A DNA stretch of 8,704 nucleotides, from positions 1 through 8,704 of IMG/VR virus record IMGVR_UViG_2609460344_000011. One strand, written 5' to 3'. The stretch's first letter is position 1. Each line of letters begins with the position of its first letter. A program made the position numbers and the translations under genes. This DNA comes from a virus. Its lineage: Duplodnaviria; Heunggongvirae; Uroviricota; Caudoviricetes. A model generated the notes under the pieces. That model searched no databases, was not told where the DNA came from, and saw only the letters and a program-made list of their open reading frames with translations. Below, in pieces: positions 5,503 through 8,704 of this stretch.

Positions 5503-5519
5503 TTTTGTGGAGAAAGTTG

Positions 5520-5891
5520 ATGCGTGATATTCAAATGGTTCTTGAACGTTGGGGGGCATGGGTGGCAAATAATCACGAGGATGTGGAATGGTCATCTGTT
5601 GCTGCAGGTTTTAAGGGATTAATTCCTTCGAAAGTAAAATCCCGCCCGCAATGTAGCGATGACGATGGCCTGATCATTAGCTCTGCGATGACAGTTCTTA
5701 AGAAAAAGGAACCGTATCAATACGAATTACTGGAAATGTATTATGTGTATGGGGTTACATTACGGGTGTTGGGGGTAAAACTGGGGATATCACTTAATCA
5801 GGTTGTTATCAGACTGCAGAAAGCTGAAGGGTTTATTGACGGTTGTCTGGCAATGTTGGGGGTATCTTTAGAAATTGATTGTTACATATAG
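5520..5891 (+). CDS. Q-like late-gene antiterminator (small, about 123 aa, quuD-type)
   Basis: ATG 5520 with GGAGA at 5509-5513. The size, the position after rusA/DUF968 and before the tRNA cluster, and the N-terminal MRDIQMVLERWGAW match my recollection of small Q antiterminators of E. coli prophages. Family assignment is from memory, not a search. Confidence 0.55.
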   Translation: MRDIQMVLERWGAWVANNHEDVEWSSVAAGFKGLIPSKVKSRPQCSDDDGLIISSAMTVLKKKEPYQYELLEMYYVYGVTLRVLGVKLGISLNQVVIRLQKAEGFIDGCLAMLGVSLEIDCYI

Positions 5892-5930: not shown

Positions 5931-5963
5931 AACCTCCTGATGATACCTGTTCATTGGGAGGTT
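5931..5963 (+). promoter_or_regulatory. inverted repeat AACCTCC-N19-GGAGGTT that can sequester the Shine-Dalgarno of the downstream gene
   Basis: AACCTCC (5931-5937) is the exact reverse complement of GGAGGTT (5957-5963). The right arm contains the SD (GGGAGG 5956-5961) of the ATG at 5967. Candidate -10 hexamers TATTAT/TATAAC at 5925-5933. Confidence 0.35.
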
Positions 5964-5966
5964 ATT

Positions 5967-6584
5967 ATGGATAAAAATGTAGAGCATGTATTAGTTGATG
6001 CAATTGAAAATAAGCAATCTTTAACAGTCGTTTACTTAGGAGGGAGCCAGCCCGGAACATTAAGGAATATTTCTCCGATTAGTATAAATGGGGATAAATT
6101 GCGGGCAAGATGCCATAGTTCTGGAGCAGTAAAGGTTTTCAATCTTGGGAAAATACAGTTACCCAGTGACTCCTGCGCGGTATCTATGCACTATGGAGAT
6201 TTAGAAGTTAAAGCTTATGAGACGATGCAGAGCGTAAATGACAACTTTCATGCCCTTTATCCTGAAGGACGATGGGGTGTTGATTTTAATGAGCATCGCT
6301 TTGCTTTATTTGATTTTTTTAAAAACGGGAAACGAAAAAAAACGGCATTTATGGCAATTGAGTTCAGGGAAAGAGATGAAGAGAAAATAATAACAGGTGT
6401 AACAATTGATATTGGTATATCTGGAACAGTGATTTCTGAGAAGTCCCGAATCCCAAAAAGACGACCATGGGTAGTGGTTGGTCCCGAACACGGAGAATAC
6501 AGTACTTATTCAACTTTGGACAAGGCTGCTACAGCGTTTTTTGAGAGGCTTTCGTTGATAGCATCCGGCCTGGAAGATAATTGA
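5967..6584 (+). CDS. hypothetical protein (205 aa), AT-rich accessory gene of unknown function
   Basis: ATG 5967 with a perfect GGGAGG SD at 5956-5961; an alternative ATG at 5940 has no SD. No family recognised. Markedly AT-rich relative to the upstream genes (by eye). Hand count: 11 of 12 Arg codons are AGA/AGG/CGA/CGG and 6 of 14 Ile codons are ATA. Confidence 0.6.
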   Translation: MDKNVEHVLVDAIENKQSLTVVYLGGSQPGTLRNISPISINGDKLRARCHSSGAVKVFNLGKIQLPSDSCAVSMHYGDLEVKAYETMQSVNDNFHALYPEGRWGVDFNEHRFALFDFFKNGKRKKTAFMAIEFRERDEEKIITGVTIDIGISGTVISEKSRIPKRRPWVVVGPEHGEYSTYSTLDKAATAFFERLSLIASGLEDN

Positions 6585-6862: not shown

Positions 6863-7060
6863 ATGCTGAAACAGCAGGATATGACAGAAACCGCCAGAGT
6901 TGTGTTTGATGAATTAAGCGTTACCGAACCGGCGACAGTCGGGGAGATTGCGCAGAATACTTACCTTTCACGCGAACGCTGCCAGTTAATACTGACCCAG
7001 CTTGTTATGGCGGGTCTGGCAGACTATCAGTGCGGTTGTTACAGACGCCTTCAGTCCTGA
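6863..7060 (+). CDS. hypothetical small protein (65 aa), possible winged-helix (PapI/FaeA-like) DNA-binding protein
   Basis: ATG 6863 with a weak purine-rich stretch GGAAAGGG upstream. A helix-turn-helix-like segment ATVGEIAQNTYLSRERCQLILTQLVMAGL. Bracketed by intrinsic terminators. Assignment is tentative. Confidence 0.4.
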   Translation: MLKQQDMTETARVVFDELSVTEPATVGEIAQNTYLSRERCQLILTQLVMAGLADYQCGCYRRLQS

Positions 7061-7073
7061 AGGCTTTTTATTT
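7047..7073 (+). terminator. intrinsic terminator overlapping the stop codon of the 65-aa ORF
   Basis: Stem GCCTTCA (7047-7053) / TGAAGGC (7058-7064), loop GTCC, followed by TTTTTATTT (7065-7073). Confidence 0.55.
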
Positions 7074-7194
7074 GTGGTGAATGGGCGGCTGGTGGGGGGG
7101 CGACACCTGTCAGTCCTTTGCTTATGTGTTGATGATAATTTACCTTTTGGGGCTATAATTGAGCTAACCAATTGCTAATGAAAGTAAAATTATA

Positions 7195-7908
7195 ATGGCT
7201 GTTGTCTGTTCAGTTATCATGGTTTGCTCCCCAATTAATATTTTTCTTGAAAAGGATACGTTGTCACTTAAGCCAGGCTCAGTTGTTCTGGCCACCAAAT
7301 GCATCAGGGAGCTTTTCCTTATGCATTATGGCAAAGTTAAAATTGTCGATATAAGCGAATCCGTCGTAAGTCAATATCTGGAAAGTCAGCATAAGCTGAC
7401 GAGGACTCGTCTGACTGACATTCCGCTTTACCTGTTGCTGGAACCCAACAATCCTGCGTTGGCTGCGGCTTTAATTACCAGCCAGGGATTTTCCGGAGAG
7501 GCCACGGATATGTTTCTTATGATGGCCTGCCTGTCTCTGTTTGAAACAGATGAACGGATGTCATTGTTTTTAAGTGGATGTTTATCCAGCATAAGTGCCA
7601 AAGTCAGGGCGATAATTCAGACAGATATATCAGCAAGCTGGACGCTTGGTGCGATTGCTCTACAGTTGCATATGAGTGAGAGTTTGTTAAAGACAAAACT
7701 GAAAAATGAAGGGGGCATGTTCAGTCGCTTGTTGCTGGAAGAGCGGATGCGTGTTGCTGTAAATATGTTATGTTCCCGGCATGGATATGGACAGGCTATA
7801 GCAGAAAAATGCGGTTATTCAAGCAGGTCCTACTTTATTTCTGTATTTCACCGCTATTATGGCTTCCCGCCAGACAGATATGTATCCAGGCAAGGGCTTG
7901 ATTATTGA
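7195..7908 (+). CDS. AraC-family transcriptional regulator (AppY/GadX/YdeO/Rns-like)
   Basis: C-terminal AraC-type HTH (WTLGAIALQLHMSESLLKTKLKNEGGMFSRLLLEERMRVAVNMLCSRHGYGQAIAEKCGYSSRSYFISVFHRYYGFPP). N-terminus MAVVCSVIMVC resembles the AppY-like subgroup as recalled. AT-rich, with 5 AGG, 1 AGA and 5 ATA codons by hand count. No clear SD; an alternative start is ATG 7219. Confidence 0.7.
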   Translation: MAVVCSVIMVCSPINIFLEKDTLSLKPGSVVLATKCIRELFLMHYGKVKIVDISESVVSQYLESQHKLTRTRLTDIPLYLLLEPNNPALAAALITSQGFSGEATDMFLMMACLSLFETDERMSLFLSGCLSSISAKVRAIIQTDISASWTLGAIALQLHMSESLLKTKLKNEGGMFSRLLLEERMRVAVNMLCSRHGYGQAIAEKCGYSSRSYFISVFHRYYGFPPDRYVSRQGLDY

Positions 7909-7936
7909 TTTTCATCTGATTATTATTTTTTGGCTC

Positions 7937-8012
7937 GGCCCTTTAGCTCAGTGGTGAGAGCGAGCGACTCATAATCGCCAGGTCGCTGGTTCAAATCCAG
8001 CAAGGGCCACCA
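7937..8012 (+). tRNA. tRNA with anticodon CAU, most likely tRNA-Ile2 (lysidine, reads AUA); generic annotation would be tRNA-Met
   Basis: Hand-folded cloverleaf: acceptor GGCCCTT/AAGGGCC, D-arm GCTC/GAGC, anticodon loop CTCATAA, T-arm GCTGG/CCAGC with TTCAAAT loop, encoded CCA. Close to E. coli ileX as recalled. Confidence 0.8.
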
Positions 8013-8019
8013 TCACATA

Positions 8020-8096
8020 CCGCCATTAGCTCATCAGGAAAGAGCGCCAGCCTTCGAAGCTGGCTGCGCGGGGTTCAAGTCCCCGATGGCGGTCCA
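8020..8096 (+). tRNA. tRNA-Arg, anticodon UCG (reads CGA/CGG)
   Basis: Acceptor CCGCCAT/ATGGCGG, D-arm GCTC/GAGC, anticodon stem CCAGC/GCTGG with loop CTTCGAA, T-arm CGGGG/CCCCG with TTCAAGT loop, encoded CCA. The C1-G72 first pair is unusual but the fold is complete. Confidence 0.75.
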
Positions 8097-8109
8097 TTAT
8101 CTGCATCAT

Positions 8110-8186
8110 GCGTTGTTAGCTCAGCCGGACAGAGCAATTGCCTTCTAAGCAATCGGTCACTGGTTCGAATCCAGTACAACGCGCCA
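8110..8186 (+). tRNA. tRNA-Arg, anticodon UCU (reads AGA/AGG), argU-like
   Basis: Acceptor GCGTTGT/ACAACGC, D-arm GCTC/GAGC, anticodon stem ATTGC/GCAAT with loop CTTCTAA, T-arm ACTGG/CCAGT with TTCGAAT loop, encoded CCA. Confidence 0.8.
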
Positions 8187-8200
8187 CACTTATTTTCCCT

Positions 8201-8227
8201 GGCTCGCTTTTGCGGGCCTTTTTTTTT
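8201..8227 (+). terminator. intrinsic terminator downstream of the tRNA cluster
   Basis: Stem GGCTCGC (8201-8207) / GCGGGCC (8212-8218) with one G-U pair, loop TTTT, followed by T9 (8219-8227). Confidence 0.65.
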
Positions 8228-8439
8228 AAATGTCTCACAATTCAGGCGGTTGACTGTTGTCTGGTTTGCGGGGAGTTTGTTAAAAGAAACTGGCATGGTG
8301 AATCCCCCTGTGCGGAGGGGCAATCAGCAACTGGTGTTTTGTCACCGACCCTTATCCTTTCTGTGCGGGTTCAGGTGCTGATACTGAACTCACCGGGAGG
8401 CACCCGGCACCATGCAATGGCACATAGCGCCACTCTCCA

Positions 8440-8463
8440 GCCCCTCTCCGGAGGGGCTTTCTT
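8440..8463 (+). terminator. GC-rich hairpin with weak T-rich tail (possible attenuator or terminator)
   Basis: Stem GCCCCTC (8440-8446) / GAGGGGC (8451-8457), loop TCCG, followed by TTTCTT. Confidence 0.35.
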
Positions 8464-8469
8464 ATGGAC

Positions 8470-8497
8470 AAAAAAATCCCGCGCTGGGAGACGCGGG
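8470..8497 (-). terminator. candidate minus-strand intrinsic terminator
   Basis: Stem CCCGCG (8478-8483) / CGCGGG (8492-8497) with an 8-nt loop, preceded on the + strand by A7 (8470-8476). On the minus strand this reads hairpin then U7. Confidence 0.35.
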
Positions 8498-8691
8498 CGG
8501 CAAGGAATAAACAACAAAACGTGAAGTAATATTTCAGTTGGCGAATAATATCCGACAGTAATCACTCTGCGCAATAGCGCGGCCTTTTTCGTATTGCGGG
8601 CTGTTGTCTATCTTCTGCCATTATCCTGTAACTTCCGGACTTCAGCCCGCTCCTCATTTTACTCACAATATTATCCAGGCCGGGAGGATTC

Positions 8692-8704
8692 ATGGCATTT
8701 AAAC
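8692..8704 (+). CDS. 5' end of an unidentified gene running out of the window (begins MAFK)
   Basis: ATG 8692 preceded by GGGAGG at 8681-8686 with 5-nt spacing. Only 4 codons are visible. Confidence 0.3.

Follow-up and report, generated by a model that had tools for sequence, protein, structure and literature searches.

Two convergent small RNA genes of known families in the late region of a lambda-like E. coli prophage

What is encoded in the hairpin-dense region between the tRNA cluster and the conserved esterase gene of this prophage-like sequence? The region occupies positions 8228-8691 of the window, the whole stretch of 8,704 nucleotides that we analysed. A preliminary description offered three readings for it: a small RNA, a qut/pause or attenuator region for the late operon, or a convergent terminator for an antisense transcript. 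The first and third of these are upheld by our analysis, while the second is not. The region consists of two already described convergent sRNA genes of lambda-like E. coli prophages and is real but ordinary. The forward strand carries an STnc100-family RNA and the reverse strand an EcOnc08/21/42-type RNA. We consider it very probable that the region forms an sRNA cassette of a lambda-like, Sakai Sp4-type prophage, in which two independently transcribed convergent genes give rise to Hfq-associated, trans-acting RNAs.

The genomic context is that of a lambdoid prophage late region, as seen from the position of Q, the gene order of Sakai Sp4 and the lysis genes of a near-identical homologous locus, where holin and lysozyme genes come after the esterase gene. 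The Q gene is located at 5505-5891, about 2.3 kb upstream of the region, and is followed by a 214-aa ORF, small ORFs, an AraC-type gene and three tRNAs (7937-8186). An intrinsic terminator identified in the terminator scan (8201-8227, forward strand; stem 8201-8218, then T9) closes the ileZ-argN-argO tRNA cluster just outside the region. It folds at -13.8 kcal/mol (z = -4.25) and separates tRNA transcription from the sRNA gene that follows. On its 3' side, the region is bounded by the Shine-Dalgarno sequence GGGAGG and the ATG of the downstream conserved phage gene (8682-8694, forward strand). This gene begins with the ATG at 8692 and, according to the annotation of homologous loci, encodes a SASA-family sialate esterase/DUF6645 protein of the nanS-p type. 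The order of AraC-type gene, ileZ, argN, argO, intergenic region and ECs_1088 is identical in Sakai Sp4, and the locus is ~97% identical to the Sakai Sp4 and EPEC PP6 loci. Sp4, Sp5 and EPEC have nearly the same sequence over 8560-8704, the segment in front of the esterase gene. Tree et al. (2014) described a convergent sRNA pair between moron genes downstream of PR' and a conserved esterase gene. The arrangement in our sequence is this pair, with the AraC-type regulator and the tRNAs as the moron genes after Q/PR', and both RNA families were already known. Terminator-like sites are enriched, with seven found in 7800-8704 compared to 1.2 +/- 1.1 in shuffled sequences. They include three on the forward strand between the tRNAs and the esterase gene, and a minus-strand site at 8497-8478 followed by T7.

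On the forward strand, the Rfam covariance model of STnc100 (RF02076) matches 8264-8469 over its full length (model positions 1-206 of 206) with a score of 143.2 bits, compared to a gathering score of 47 (E = 3.3e-33). The small RNA reading was therefore right: this is a full-length STnc100-family sRNA gene, and members of the family are transcribed and Hfq-bound in EHEC and EPEC. The RNA 8293-8469 folds at -74.1 kcal/mol, against -60.8 +/- 4.2 kcal/mol for shuffled sequences (z = -3.15). It exhibits the architecture of STnc100: a helix P1 enclosing P2, P4 and P5 comes first, then a tail and an intrinsic terminator. In P1, GCAUGGUG (8293-8300) pairs with CACCAUGC (8408-8415) to close a multi-branch 5' domain (8293-8415). 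This long-range helix (inverted repeat I8, GCATGGTG/CACCATGC) was overlooked in the preliminary description, which had listed five separate stems. Both the sequence and the inverted-repeat listing place all five where they had been reported. However, they are not independent hairpins, since the first three are arms of the single domain that P1 encloses. P1 is present in the MFE and centroid folds, and RNAalifold also returns it on a plain MAFFT alignment.

The arms were assigned as follows. P2 (8303-8320) contains the CCCCT/AGGGG stem (8305-8309/8316-8320) and is defined by the Rfam alignment, with a register that is ambiguous within the C and G runs. A variable region (8321-8366), seen in the alignments, lies between P2 and P4; it is predicted to fold into a local GGUG/CACC hairpin and has 15 extra bases here relative to Sakai Sp4. 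P4 (8367-8391) pairs GGGUUCAG with CUGAACUC. It corresponds to the TTCAG/CTGAA stem, which reads GTTCAG/CTGAAC at 8369-8374/8384-8389 (I16) and extends to eight pairs (8367-8374/8384-8391). P5 (8393-8407), again from the Rfam alignment, is the hairpin CCGGG-AGGCA-CCCGG with strands 8393-8397 and 8403-8407. Four of the five stems thus belong to the STnc100 RNA: P2, P4 and P5 lie within the long-range helix, and the fourth is the terminator of the RNA itself.

The 5' domain is supported by covariation, which had been proposed as a check. From an alignment of 63 distinct homologues built without structural information, RNAalifold returns P1, P2, P4 and P5. Across these homologues, 97.0% of cells are paired, compared to 36-48% when the partners are slid, and 99 cells show double changes, compared to 11-36 with slid partners. 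The covariation score is 0.255 as opposed to 0.06-0.09, a value reached in none of 500 shuffles. P1 is paired in 96.6% of its cells. In P2, 99.7% of cells are paired and compensatory CG->UA changes occur in 11-12 sequences of the HK639-like clade (CUUUC/GAAAG). P4 shows changes on both sides in six of its eight pairs, including AU, GC and CG at one and the same pair.

P5 and the 3' strand of P1 together form a nearly invariant 22-nt segment, CCGGGAGGCACCCGGCACCAUG. This segment served as the search anchor for most homologues, and its invariance in alignment A2 is partly due to ascertainment. With an independent 5' anchor, the exact 22-mer is found in 112 of 128 viral-contig copies (88%). The variants listed among these copies are single-base changes and none is compensatory, so the pairing of P5 is conserved but has no covariation support. 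The lack of compensatory change in CCGGGAGGCACCCGGCACCAUG, whereas P2 and P4 covary freely, raises the possibility, which we regard as doubtful, that the conserved 5' domain and above all this segment is more than a scaffold. It might be a functional module that acts through its sequence, for instance as a platform or a decoy to which some host or phage factor binds. If this were true, recombination would place different seed-plus-terminator cassettes and different convergent partner sRNAs onto a common 5' domain, and lambdoid phages from E. coli to Klebsiella would share a plug-and-play sRNA system.

A putative promoter upstream of P1 was identified by eye (8257-8286, forward strand), with a -35-like TTGTCT (8257-8262) and an A/T-rich -10 element TTAAAA/TAAAAG (8280-8286). 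It would start the RNA near G8293. The E. coli clades have in common a TT(G/A)TTAAAA block located 8-13 nt before P1, a TTGAC(C/T) -35 element is present in the PasD and HK639-like clades, and the 5' end of PasD2 maps to the G of GCAUGGUG. Our consensus promoter scan gave no match upstream of the forward sRNA. The same scan also misses PasD2, which is expressed and has a mapped 5' end, as well as a TTGACC-18-TAACTT site seen by eye in the HK639-like clade, and is thus uninformative for the forward RNA.

In the predicted fold, the 3' tail (8416-8438) forms a small hairpin and leaves a C/U-rich stretch, CACUCUCCA, unpaired; this is probably the base-pairing (seed) region. The tails that follow CACCAUGC in the family fall into several unrelated classes; as judged by sequence comparison, the forward tail is a swappable module. 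The intrinsic terminator (8439-8466) is supported by the terminator scan, inverted repeat I9 and the end of the Rfam model. Its stem, described earlier as GCCCCTC/GAGGGGC, is AGCCCCTC/GAGGGGCT (8439-8446/8451-8458), and it is followed by a broken U-tract (UUUCUUAU). Tail and terminator together (8417-8469) fold with z = -3.36. The terminator scan further identified a forward-strand hairpin CUGCGC-AAUA-GCGCGG followed by CCUUUUU (8567-8589), inside the reverse-strand RNA and conserved in Sp4, Sp5 and EPEC. It probably serves as a back-up that terminates forward read-through. Judged by eye and by location, it looks homologous to the PasD terminator, since that of PasD2 (GGCTGCGCATTGCGCAGCC+T8) is found at the equivalent position.

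EcOnc27 (Sakai Sp5) and sRNA103 (EDL933) of the STnc100 family share with our copy the full-length model match, the same P1, P2, P4 and P5 architecture and an own terminator. They also share the location in a lambdoid prophage late region, directly upstream of a sialate-esterase gene and facing a convergent sRNA. The EcOnc27 locus scores 207.7 bits for STnc100, and the Hfq CRAC peak EcOnc27 of Sp5 maps to the part comprising P5, the tail and the terminator. EcOnc27 is located 3' of stx2B and gives bands of ~235/247 nt, of which the longer is destabilized without Hfq; the distance from P1 to the terminator is ~175 nt. Transcriptome reads were reported for all 11 annotated STnc100 copies of EDL933, and a northern blot confirmed one of them. 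In contrast to EcOnc27, the copy here follows tRNAs rather than stx2B and has an Sp4-type tail (AAUGGCACAUAGCGCCACUCUCCA) rather than the Sp5 tail.

PasD1 and PasD2 of EPEC E2348/69 (EcOnc13 in Sakai Sp3), whose relationship to STnc100 has been published, were validated by northern blot and RIL-seq. These Hfq-associated sRNAs have in common with our RNA the 5' start GCAUGGUGAAUCC, P2, a P1-type closing helix and the site upstream of esterase or holin genes. However, they have no P5 hairpin, carry a different, longer tail with the seed UGUGAG, end at the counterpart of the 8567-8582 hairpin and stay below the STnc100 gathering score. The forward RNA is not a PasD RNA: the window contains no site for the PasD probe at up to three mismatches, the tail differs, and the P5 hairpin that PasD lacks is present. 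StxS (EcOnc15) is likewise a prophage late-region Hfq-binding sRNA made in lysogens. It differs in being a prematurely terminated PR'-tR' transcript of Stx phages, directly downstream of Q, whereas the RNAs here are encoded another 2.3 kb downstream, apparently as separate transcription units. The put antiterminator RNAs are a feature of HK639-type phages. A link to them was considered and set aside, as the element in HK639 is located in the late region after Q and not near PL or PR.

Of 5426 complete E. coli genomes, 2905 contain the forward element, in as many as 10 copies, and 1001 contain the reverse module. Phage and viral collections provide the basis for the taxonomic range of the element. 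In a scan of 596 Gb of genome contigs with GCATGGTGAATCCNCC, the matches listed were chance hits in unrelated phyla, the 15 specified bases of this pattern being too few.

On the reverse strand, the 35-nt northern probe for EcOnc08/21/42, taken from the supplement of Tree et al. (2014), matches 8544-8578 with 0 mismatches, where 0 matches are expected by chance. The probe carries forward-strand sequence and therefore detects a minus-strand RNA; its polarity was checked against the EcOnc27 probe, which is antisense to its own forward-strand target. The Sakai coordinates of Tree et al. are offset by ~135 bp on NC_002695.2 at Sp5 (AsxR). At Sp4 we assumed zero offset, since only in that case does the probe fall inside peak EcOnc21, and the probe match is independent of this assumption. 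The minimum body of the reverse RNA (8470-8651, minus strand) is ~97% identical to Sakai Sp4 and EPEC PP6. It corresponds to EPEC positions 1444797-1444978 (minus strand), the sRNA E2348C_1409.E2348C_1408.IGR, which was mapped by RIL-seq and RNA-seq with a length of 182 nt. The intrinsic terminator (8470-8497, minus strand) is CCCGCG-UCUCCCAG-CGCGGG, then A and U7, as found in the terminator scan and inverted repeat I18. The preliminary description had already read the fifth stem (CCCGCG/CGCGGG, 8478-8483/8492-8497), with A7 in front at 8470-8476, as a minus-strand terminator. This is confirmed by the scan and by the 3' end of the EPEC sRNA, which maps there; Sakai Sp4 and EPEC PP6 have the same terminator.

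Directly 5' of the terminator lies the sequence CCUUGCC (8499-8505, minus strand; GGCAAGG on the forward strand), which is unpaired in the predicted fold. The RIL-seq partners of the EPEC homologue, tir, espC, perA, gadX, the dppA 5'UTR, cfa, emrA and pcm, share a GGCAAGG/GGCAGGG motif, and the CCUUGCC seed is complementary to GGCAAGG. As a whole, the reverse-strand fold is not unusually stable (z = -1.2). A 2021 review gives the function of EcOnc08/21/42 as unknown.

Several positions are candidates for the 5' end of the reverse RNA. A consensus sigma-70-like promoter match, ATGCCA-17-GATAAT (8698-8670, minus strand), overlaps the esterase start codon and is found at the same site in Sakai Sp4. 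It is the only consensus promoter match at the region, from a scan that returned two in total versus 1.0 expected, and would start the RNA near 8663. Published transcript sizes disagree, with 182 nt in EPEC and a northern band of ~271 nt in Sakai, where the RNA was detected as Hfq peaks EcOnc08 and EcOnc21. The 5' end would thus be at ~8651 (EPEC RNA-seq), at ~8663 (promoter match) or past the window if the northern size is right. The proposed antisense transcript starting near the gene at 8692 and ending at a convergent terminator agrees well with the exact probe match, the EPEC homologue (equivalent to 8651->8470) and the promoter match.

Compared to EcOnc08, EcOnc21 and EcOnc42 (Sakai Sp4 and Stx1 phage Sp15), which have the same terminator, seed and convergent position relative to STnc100 and the esterase gene, the reverse RNA shows only point differences. 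The terminator loop is CCCAG instead of CCCUG and the stem is one pair shorter. The 5' end of this RNA type lies at or past the end of the window, so that our sequence may cover only part of the gene. The anti-sRNAs AsxR, AgvB and EcOnc03 (RF02703, RF02702) occupy the same minus-strand slot, convergent and right after the STnc100 terminator, and also have a terminator with a short functional region in front. However, they are 51-60 nt long with a conserved 3' part (GUAUCUCAUGC..UUGCCCGAACCC..UCGGGC), whereas the RNA here is at least 182 nt long. Searches with the models of this family, whose criterion is the conserved ~42-nt 3' region, gave no match within 7000-8704 (E <= 1) or within 8440-8704 (E <= 10), while the Sp5 locus, used as a control, reached 88.1 bits; membership was thus rejected. 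The reverse RNA is a positional analogue of AsxR/AgvB and a distant relative at best. Esr41 (EcOnc14), an Hfq-dependent sRNA of the EHEC accessory genome that is often near PasD, was also considered. It sits in SpLE1 and not in a lambdoid late region, and the window has no Rfam Esr41 match.

The overlap of the promoter match with the esterase ATG raises the possibility that the reverse RNA is mainly a cis-antisense regulator of the esterase gene, covering its 5' UTR and possibly the start codon. A length of ~271 nt would put its 5' end inside the esterase ORF, and over 8470-8651 or more it has full complementarity to any forward late transcript. In a lysogen, however, the late transcript is expected to terminate upstream, so that little sense RNA would be available. 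The partner of this conserved upstream segment in Sp5 is instead the 53-nt AsxR, and in RIL-seq the EPEC homologue shows the behaviour of an sRNA acting in trans. We therefore regard a predominantly cis-antisense role as unlikely, while noting that it would be compatible with action in trans.

Both RNAs could also be by-products of hairpins that serve only as bidirectional terminators or insulators and 3'-end stabilizers for the moron cassette, that is, the tRNAs here and stx in Stx phages. The back-to-back terminators (8439-8466 forward, 8497-8470 reverse) are in keeping with such a role, as is the start of the element 75 nt after stx2B in Stx2 phages, and no validated target of STnc100 or EcOnc08/21/42 is known from the literature. 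Yet a terminator needs no covarying multi-branch domain of ~120 nt. Numerous Hfq-dependent chimeras are formed by PasD and by the EPEC homologue of the reverse RNA, the mRNA partners having in common a motif complementary to the sRNA, and overexpression of EcOnc27/sRNA103 reportedly raises fimZ and espA transcript levels. On balance this explanation is quite improbable.

The structures could instead act in cis on the late transcript, with the esterase and lysis genes under the control of a qut/pause site, an attenuator or a processing signal and no separate sRNA genes present, but this appears very improbable. The element is always found in the late-operon leader and oriented with late transcription, in HK639 between Q/tR' and the lysis genes. 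The three forward-strand terminators and the near-identity of 8560-8704 in Sp4, Sp5 and EPEC would suit such a signal. However, qut of lambdoid phages overlaps PR', directly downstream of Q. Here Q ends at 5891, 2.3 kb before the region begins at 8228, which leaves the qut/pause or attenuator reading unsupported. Moreover, RNAs of this family are seen in uninduced lysogens as discrete, Hfq-bound species. The element has terminators of its own on either side, in our sequence as well as in a divergent clade, and P1 begins at the position to which the 5' end of PasD was mapped.

Coding of a small protein, for example one of 32 aa from the nearly invariant GGAGG...AUG of the family (8396-8400/8412-8414) or from reverse ORFs of 67 and 43 aa, is scarcely credible: several EDL933 STnc100 copies do have ribosome footprints (ribosome coverage values <=3.2), but the AUG lies within helix P1, and across 94 variants its ORF ranges from 2 to 49 aa, is unrelated between tail classes and usually crosses the sRNA terminator, and this reading was rejected. 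The other ORFs are equally without support, in line with the earlier view that none is convincing: those of the region (21-128 aa) overlap tRNAs or cross terminators, a Pfam search of the three longer ones (128, 67 and 43 aa) gave no match, and RefSeq annotation of homologous loci has pseudo-fragments only.

Our data are best explained by two convergent sRNA genes that would operate as follows. The forward RNA would probably start at G8293 and end at the terminator 8439-8466, giving ~170 nt. Its conserved 5' domain (P1 enclosing P2, the variable arm, P4 and P5) would carry an exchangeable 3' tail, whose unpaired C/U-rich stretch likely base-pairs with targets. The reverse RNA would start near or just inside the beginning of the esterase gene and end at the terminator 8497-8470, which adjoins its unpaired CCUUGCC seed. 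If expressed in this host, both RNAs would most likely associate with Hfq in the lysogen and regulate host and virulence mRNAs in trans by base pairing. The back-to-back terminators would stop transcription from both sides, and Q-modified RNA polymerase would cross both of them during lytic growth.

Our analysis adds little that is new about these RNAs. Its practical use lies in pointing to sRNA genes that are without RefSeq annotation and sometimes have pseudo-'hypothetical protein' fragments placed on them. The families are tied to EHEC and EPEC virulence regulation, the reverse RNA through tir, espC, perA and gadX, and the STnc100 copy of Stx2 phages has HUS-associated variants. The forward family is carried by about half of complete E. 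coli genomes.

The window comes from the late region of a lambdoid prophage. DUF968 lies upstream of the Q antiterminator (PF06530; 5505-5891), which is followed by a 214-aa ORF without a significant Pfam family (5940-6584), small ORFs, a 237-aa AraC-family regulator (Pfam; 7195-7908) and, 3' of the regulator, three tRNAs with anticodons CAT, TCG and TCT (ARAGORN). The 214-aa ORF and the regulator belong to the moron cargo that separates Q from the tRNAs. The gene starting at 8692, 3' of the 460-bp region (8228-8691), has homologs annotated as either SASA-family carbohydrate esterase or DUF6645; holin and lysozyme genes follow. The E. coli Sakai prophage Sp4 has the same gene order (AraC-type ECs_1087, ileZ, argN, argO, a ~490-bp gap, ECs_1088); ECs_1087 is shorter (195 aa) than the regulator of the window. 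The tRNA at 7937-8012, tRNA-Met (CAT) according to ARAGORN, is annotated in Sp4 as ileZ (tRNA-Ile, anticodon cat) and in an O145 genome as tRNA-Ile; ileZ-argN-argO is the usual rare-codon tRNA set of Stx-type phages. In a near-identical locus (L001), an IS5-family element is found immediately upstream of the tRNA.

The GC-rich stems listed in the preliminary description between the tRNAs and the 8692 gene are all present in the sequence. An inverted-repeat search returned AGCCCCTC/GAGGGGCT (8439-8446/8451-8458), GTTCAG/CTGAAC (8369-8374/8384-8389) and CCCGCG/CGCGGG (8478-8483/8492-8497), together with a helix absent from that description, GCATGGTG/CACCATGC (8293-8300/8408-8415), with 107 nt between its arms. 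A consensus scan of 7800-8704 gave seven terminator-like sites, compared to 1.2 +/- 1.1 in shuffles, including plus-strand sites at 8201-8218 (3' of the tRNAs), 8439-8458 and 8567-8582.

On the forward strand, the earlier suggestion of a small RNA is borne out by a full-length Rfam match to STnc100 (RF02076) at 8264-8469, which scores 143.2 bits (gathering score, 47). For the RNA 8293-8469 the folding z-score is -3.15. Three of the stems in the preliminary description, P2 (8303-8320), P4 (8367-8391) and P5 (8393-8407), form the arms of a single domain that has the long-range helix P1 as its closing helix, and a fourth is the terminator of the forward RNA. Our homolog set comprised IMG/VR copies found with a P5/P1 22-mer plus Sakai Sp4, Sp5 and EPEC PasD1 and PasD2; from its 63 distinct 5' domains, aligned with MAFFT alone, RNAalifold recovered P1, P2, P4 and P5. 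Across these homologs 97.0% of cells are paired (36-48% with partners slid), 99 are changed on both sides (11-36 with slid partners), and the covariation score is 0.255 versus 0.06-0.09, with 0/500 shuffles attaining the observed score. P4 has double changes at 6/8 pairs, and in a divergent clade P2 changes from CCCC/GGGG to CUUUC/GAAAG. The P2 region (8300-8321) and the forward terminator (8440-8461), both CCCCU...AGGGG palindromes, show 73% mutual complementarity (inverted repeat I1), and in the MFE fold of the window variant P2 is replaced by a longer pairing of 8310-8320 with 8356-8366; alternative folds are therefore possible.

P5 and the 3' strand of P1 form a 22-nt segment, CCGGGAGGCACCCGGCACCAUG (8393-8414), whose invariance in the 63-sequence set is partly built in, as it served as the search anchor. 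Among copies collected with an independent 5' anchor it is exact in 112/128 (88%), and it is also exact in Klebsiella phages and in the HK639-like clade, which is otherwise ~60% identical. The variants listed in the independent set are single-base changes without compensation, and no compensatory changes were seen in the segment; P5 is thus conserved as sequence, its pairing not being supported by covariation.

We found no convincing ORF in the region, as had been noted: the ORFs present are short and overlap tRNAs or extend across terminators, the three tested have no Pfam match, and pseudo-fragments are the sole annotation at homologous RefSeq loci. A conserved ORF starting from the invariant GGAGG...AUG in P5/P1 was rejected, the frame encoding 2-49 aa of unrelated sequence across 94 variants and usually reading through the sRNA terminator. 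The esterase start codon sits within the palindrome TCATGA (8690-8695), so that the minus strand also reads ATG, which we judge coincidental; the minus-strand ORF 8562-8693 (43 aa) has no Pfam match.

Several members of the forward family have been described. EcOnc27 (alias sRNA103), encoded 3' of stx2B in Sp5, is an Hfq-bound RNA of ~235/247 nt whose longer form is Hfq-dependent (Tree et al. 2014); its identification as STnc100 is already published, and its locus scores 207.7 bits for STnc100. In EDL933, transcriptome reads cover 11/11 annotated STnc100 copies, one of them northern-confirmed. EPEC PasD1 and PasD2 (172-173 nt; northern and RIL-seq) were related to STnc100 in a 2026 preprint. 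Their 5' ends lie exactly at GCAUGGUG, and by homology the forward RNA of the window would start at G8293; a consensus promoter scan gave no call at this start and also misses PasD2. The forward RNA is not PasD itself, as it has P5 and another tail and gives no match to the PasD probe at up to three mismatches.

Of 5426 complete E. coli genomes, 2905 have the forward element, at up to 10 copies. The tails that follow CACCAUGC belong to unrelated classes: window/Sp4-type, Sp5-type, PasD-type, HK639-type ('GACAACAACAAUA...') and others. An EcOnc08-type partner accompanies the window-type tail at 24 unique loci, an AsxR-type partner occurs at nine, and 24 have neither. In prophage PP6 of EPEC E2348/69 (L003:820-870), a copy lacking the 5' part lies beside an ISEc13 transposase gene, with tail and convergent sRNA intact.

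Phages HK639, Fraca and SaltyDalty carry the divergent clade, as do Klebsiella prophages. Its members (L193:11617-11818, L228:2026-2230, HK639 (L248):3501-3733 and relatives) keep the 5' domain, with P2 and P4 compensated. The HK639 element maps between Q/tR' and the lysis genes and still attains the STnc100 gathering score. The CA-rich tail of this clade, GACAACAACAAUACAAG, resembles the GcvB-target motif CACAACA carried by the anti-sRNA AgvB, and for this reason one might speculate that the RNA sponges GcvB. Tandem arrays of the STnc100-type gene also exist, since one viral contig has four tandem matches beside two tRNAs (L131:2265-3380, minus strand) and others, among them L135, L142, L149, L162 and L205, have two P5-motif copies spaced exactly 484 nt. 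In L228, a match to isrI (RF01392; 1750-1846), an Hfq-binding RNA, lies downstream of a tRNA and precedes the STnc100-like copy by ~180 nt, a further case of clustered sRNA genes in this phage region.

On the minus strand, the A7-preceded stem at 8478-8497 had been read as a terminator, and the consensus scan indeed finds a strong one (8497-8478, then T7). The published 35-nt northern probe for EcOnc08/21/42 matches the plus strand exactly at 8544-8578; as it carries plus-strand sequence, the RNA detected is from the minus strand. The EcOnc27 probe, antisense to its plus-strand target, served as polarity control. The reverse module shares about 97% identity with Sakai Sp4 and EPEC PP6 and is present in 1001/5426 complete E. 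coli genomes. In PP6, the minus-strand sRNA E2348C_1409.E2348C_1408.IGR (1444797-1444978; RIL-seq, RNA-seq) is equivalent to 8651->8470 of the window. Its partners, including tir, espC, perA, gadX, the dppA 5'UTR, cfa, emrA and pcm, have GGCAAGG/GGCAGGG in common; the complementary CCUUGCC (8505-8499, minus strand) is unpaired in the fold and adjoins the terminator. Just 5' of this seed is a G/U-rich stretch, GUUUUGUUGUUUAUU (8506-8525, minus strand), which we take to resemble the GcvB R1 seed; a classical GcvB target, the dppA 5'UTR, is one of the partners that RIL-seq gave for the EPEC homolog. EcOnc42, the Sp15 copy, lies 3' of stx1; a 2021 review lists its function as unknown.

The reverse RNA is 182 nt long in EPEC. 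A single consensus promoter-like match, ATGCCA-17-GATAAT (8698-8670), would give about 194 nt, and the Sakai northern size of about 271 nt would put the start beyond the window, within the esterase ORF. Between Sp4, Sp5 and EPEC, the segment 8560-8704 hardly varies. Its forward hairpin 8567-8582, followed by T5, lies within the reverse RNA. The hairpin occupies the position of the PasD terminator, which it resembles by eye, and probably serves as a back-up terminator where forward transcription reads through.

The 53-nt AsxR follows STnc100 in Sp5; in the window this slot contains the EcOnc08-type RNA. Neither the AsxR nor the AgvB Rfam model has a match in 7000-8704 (E <= 1) or 8440-8704 (E <= 10), which makes the reverse RNA a positional analog of the anti-sRNAs and not a family member. 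Esr41, located in SpLE1, was likewise rejected.

Hairpins acting as terminator or insulator and nothing more would leave both the covarying 120-nt domain and the motif-specific RIL-seq partners unexplained, and we reject this reading. The position of qut relative to Q and PR' is textbook knowledge; with Q, and hence PR', 2.3 kb upstream, the proposed qut, pause or attenuator role for the late operon is not supported. The feature was thus real and correctly observed, its interpretation correct in part only. As a pair of convergent sRNA genes it is already known, and its prevalence is high.
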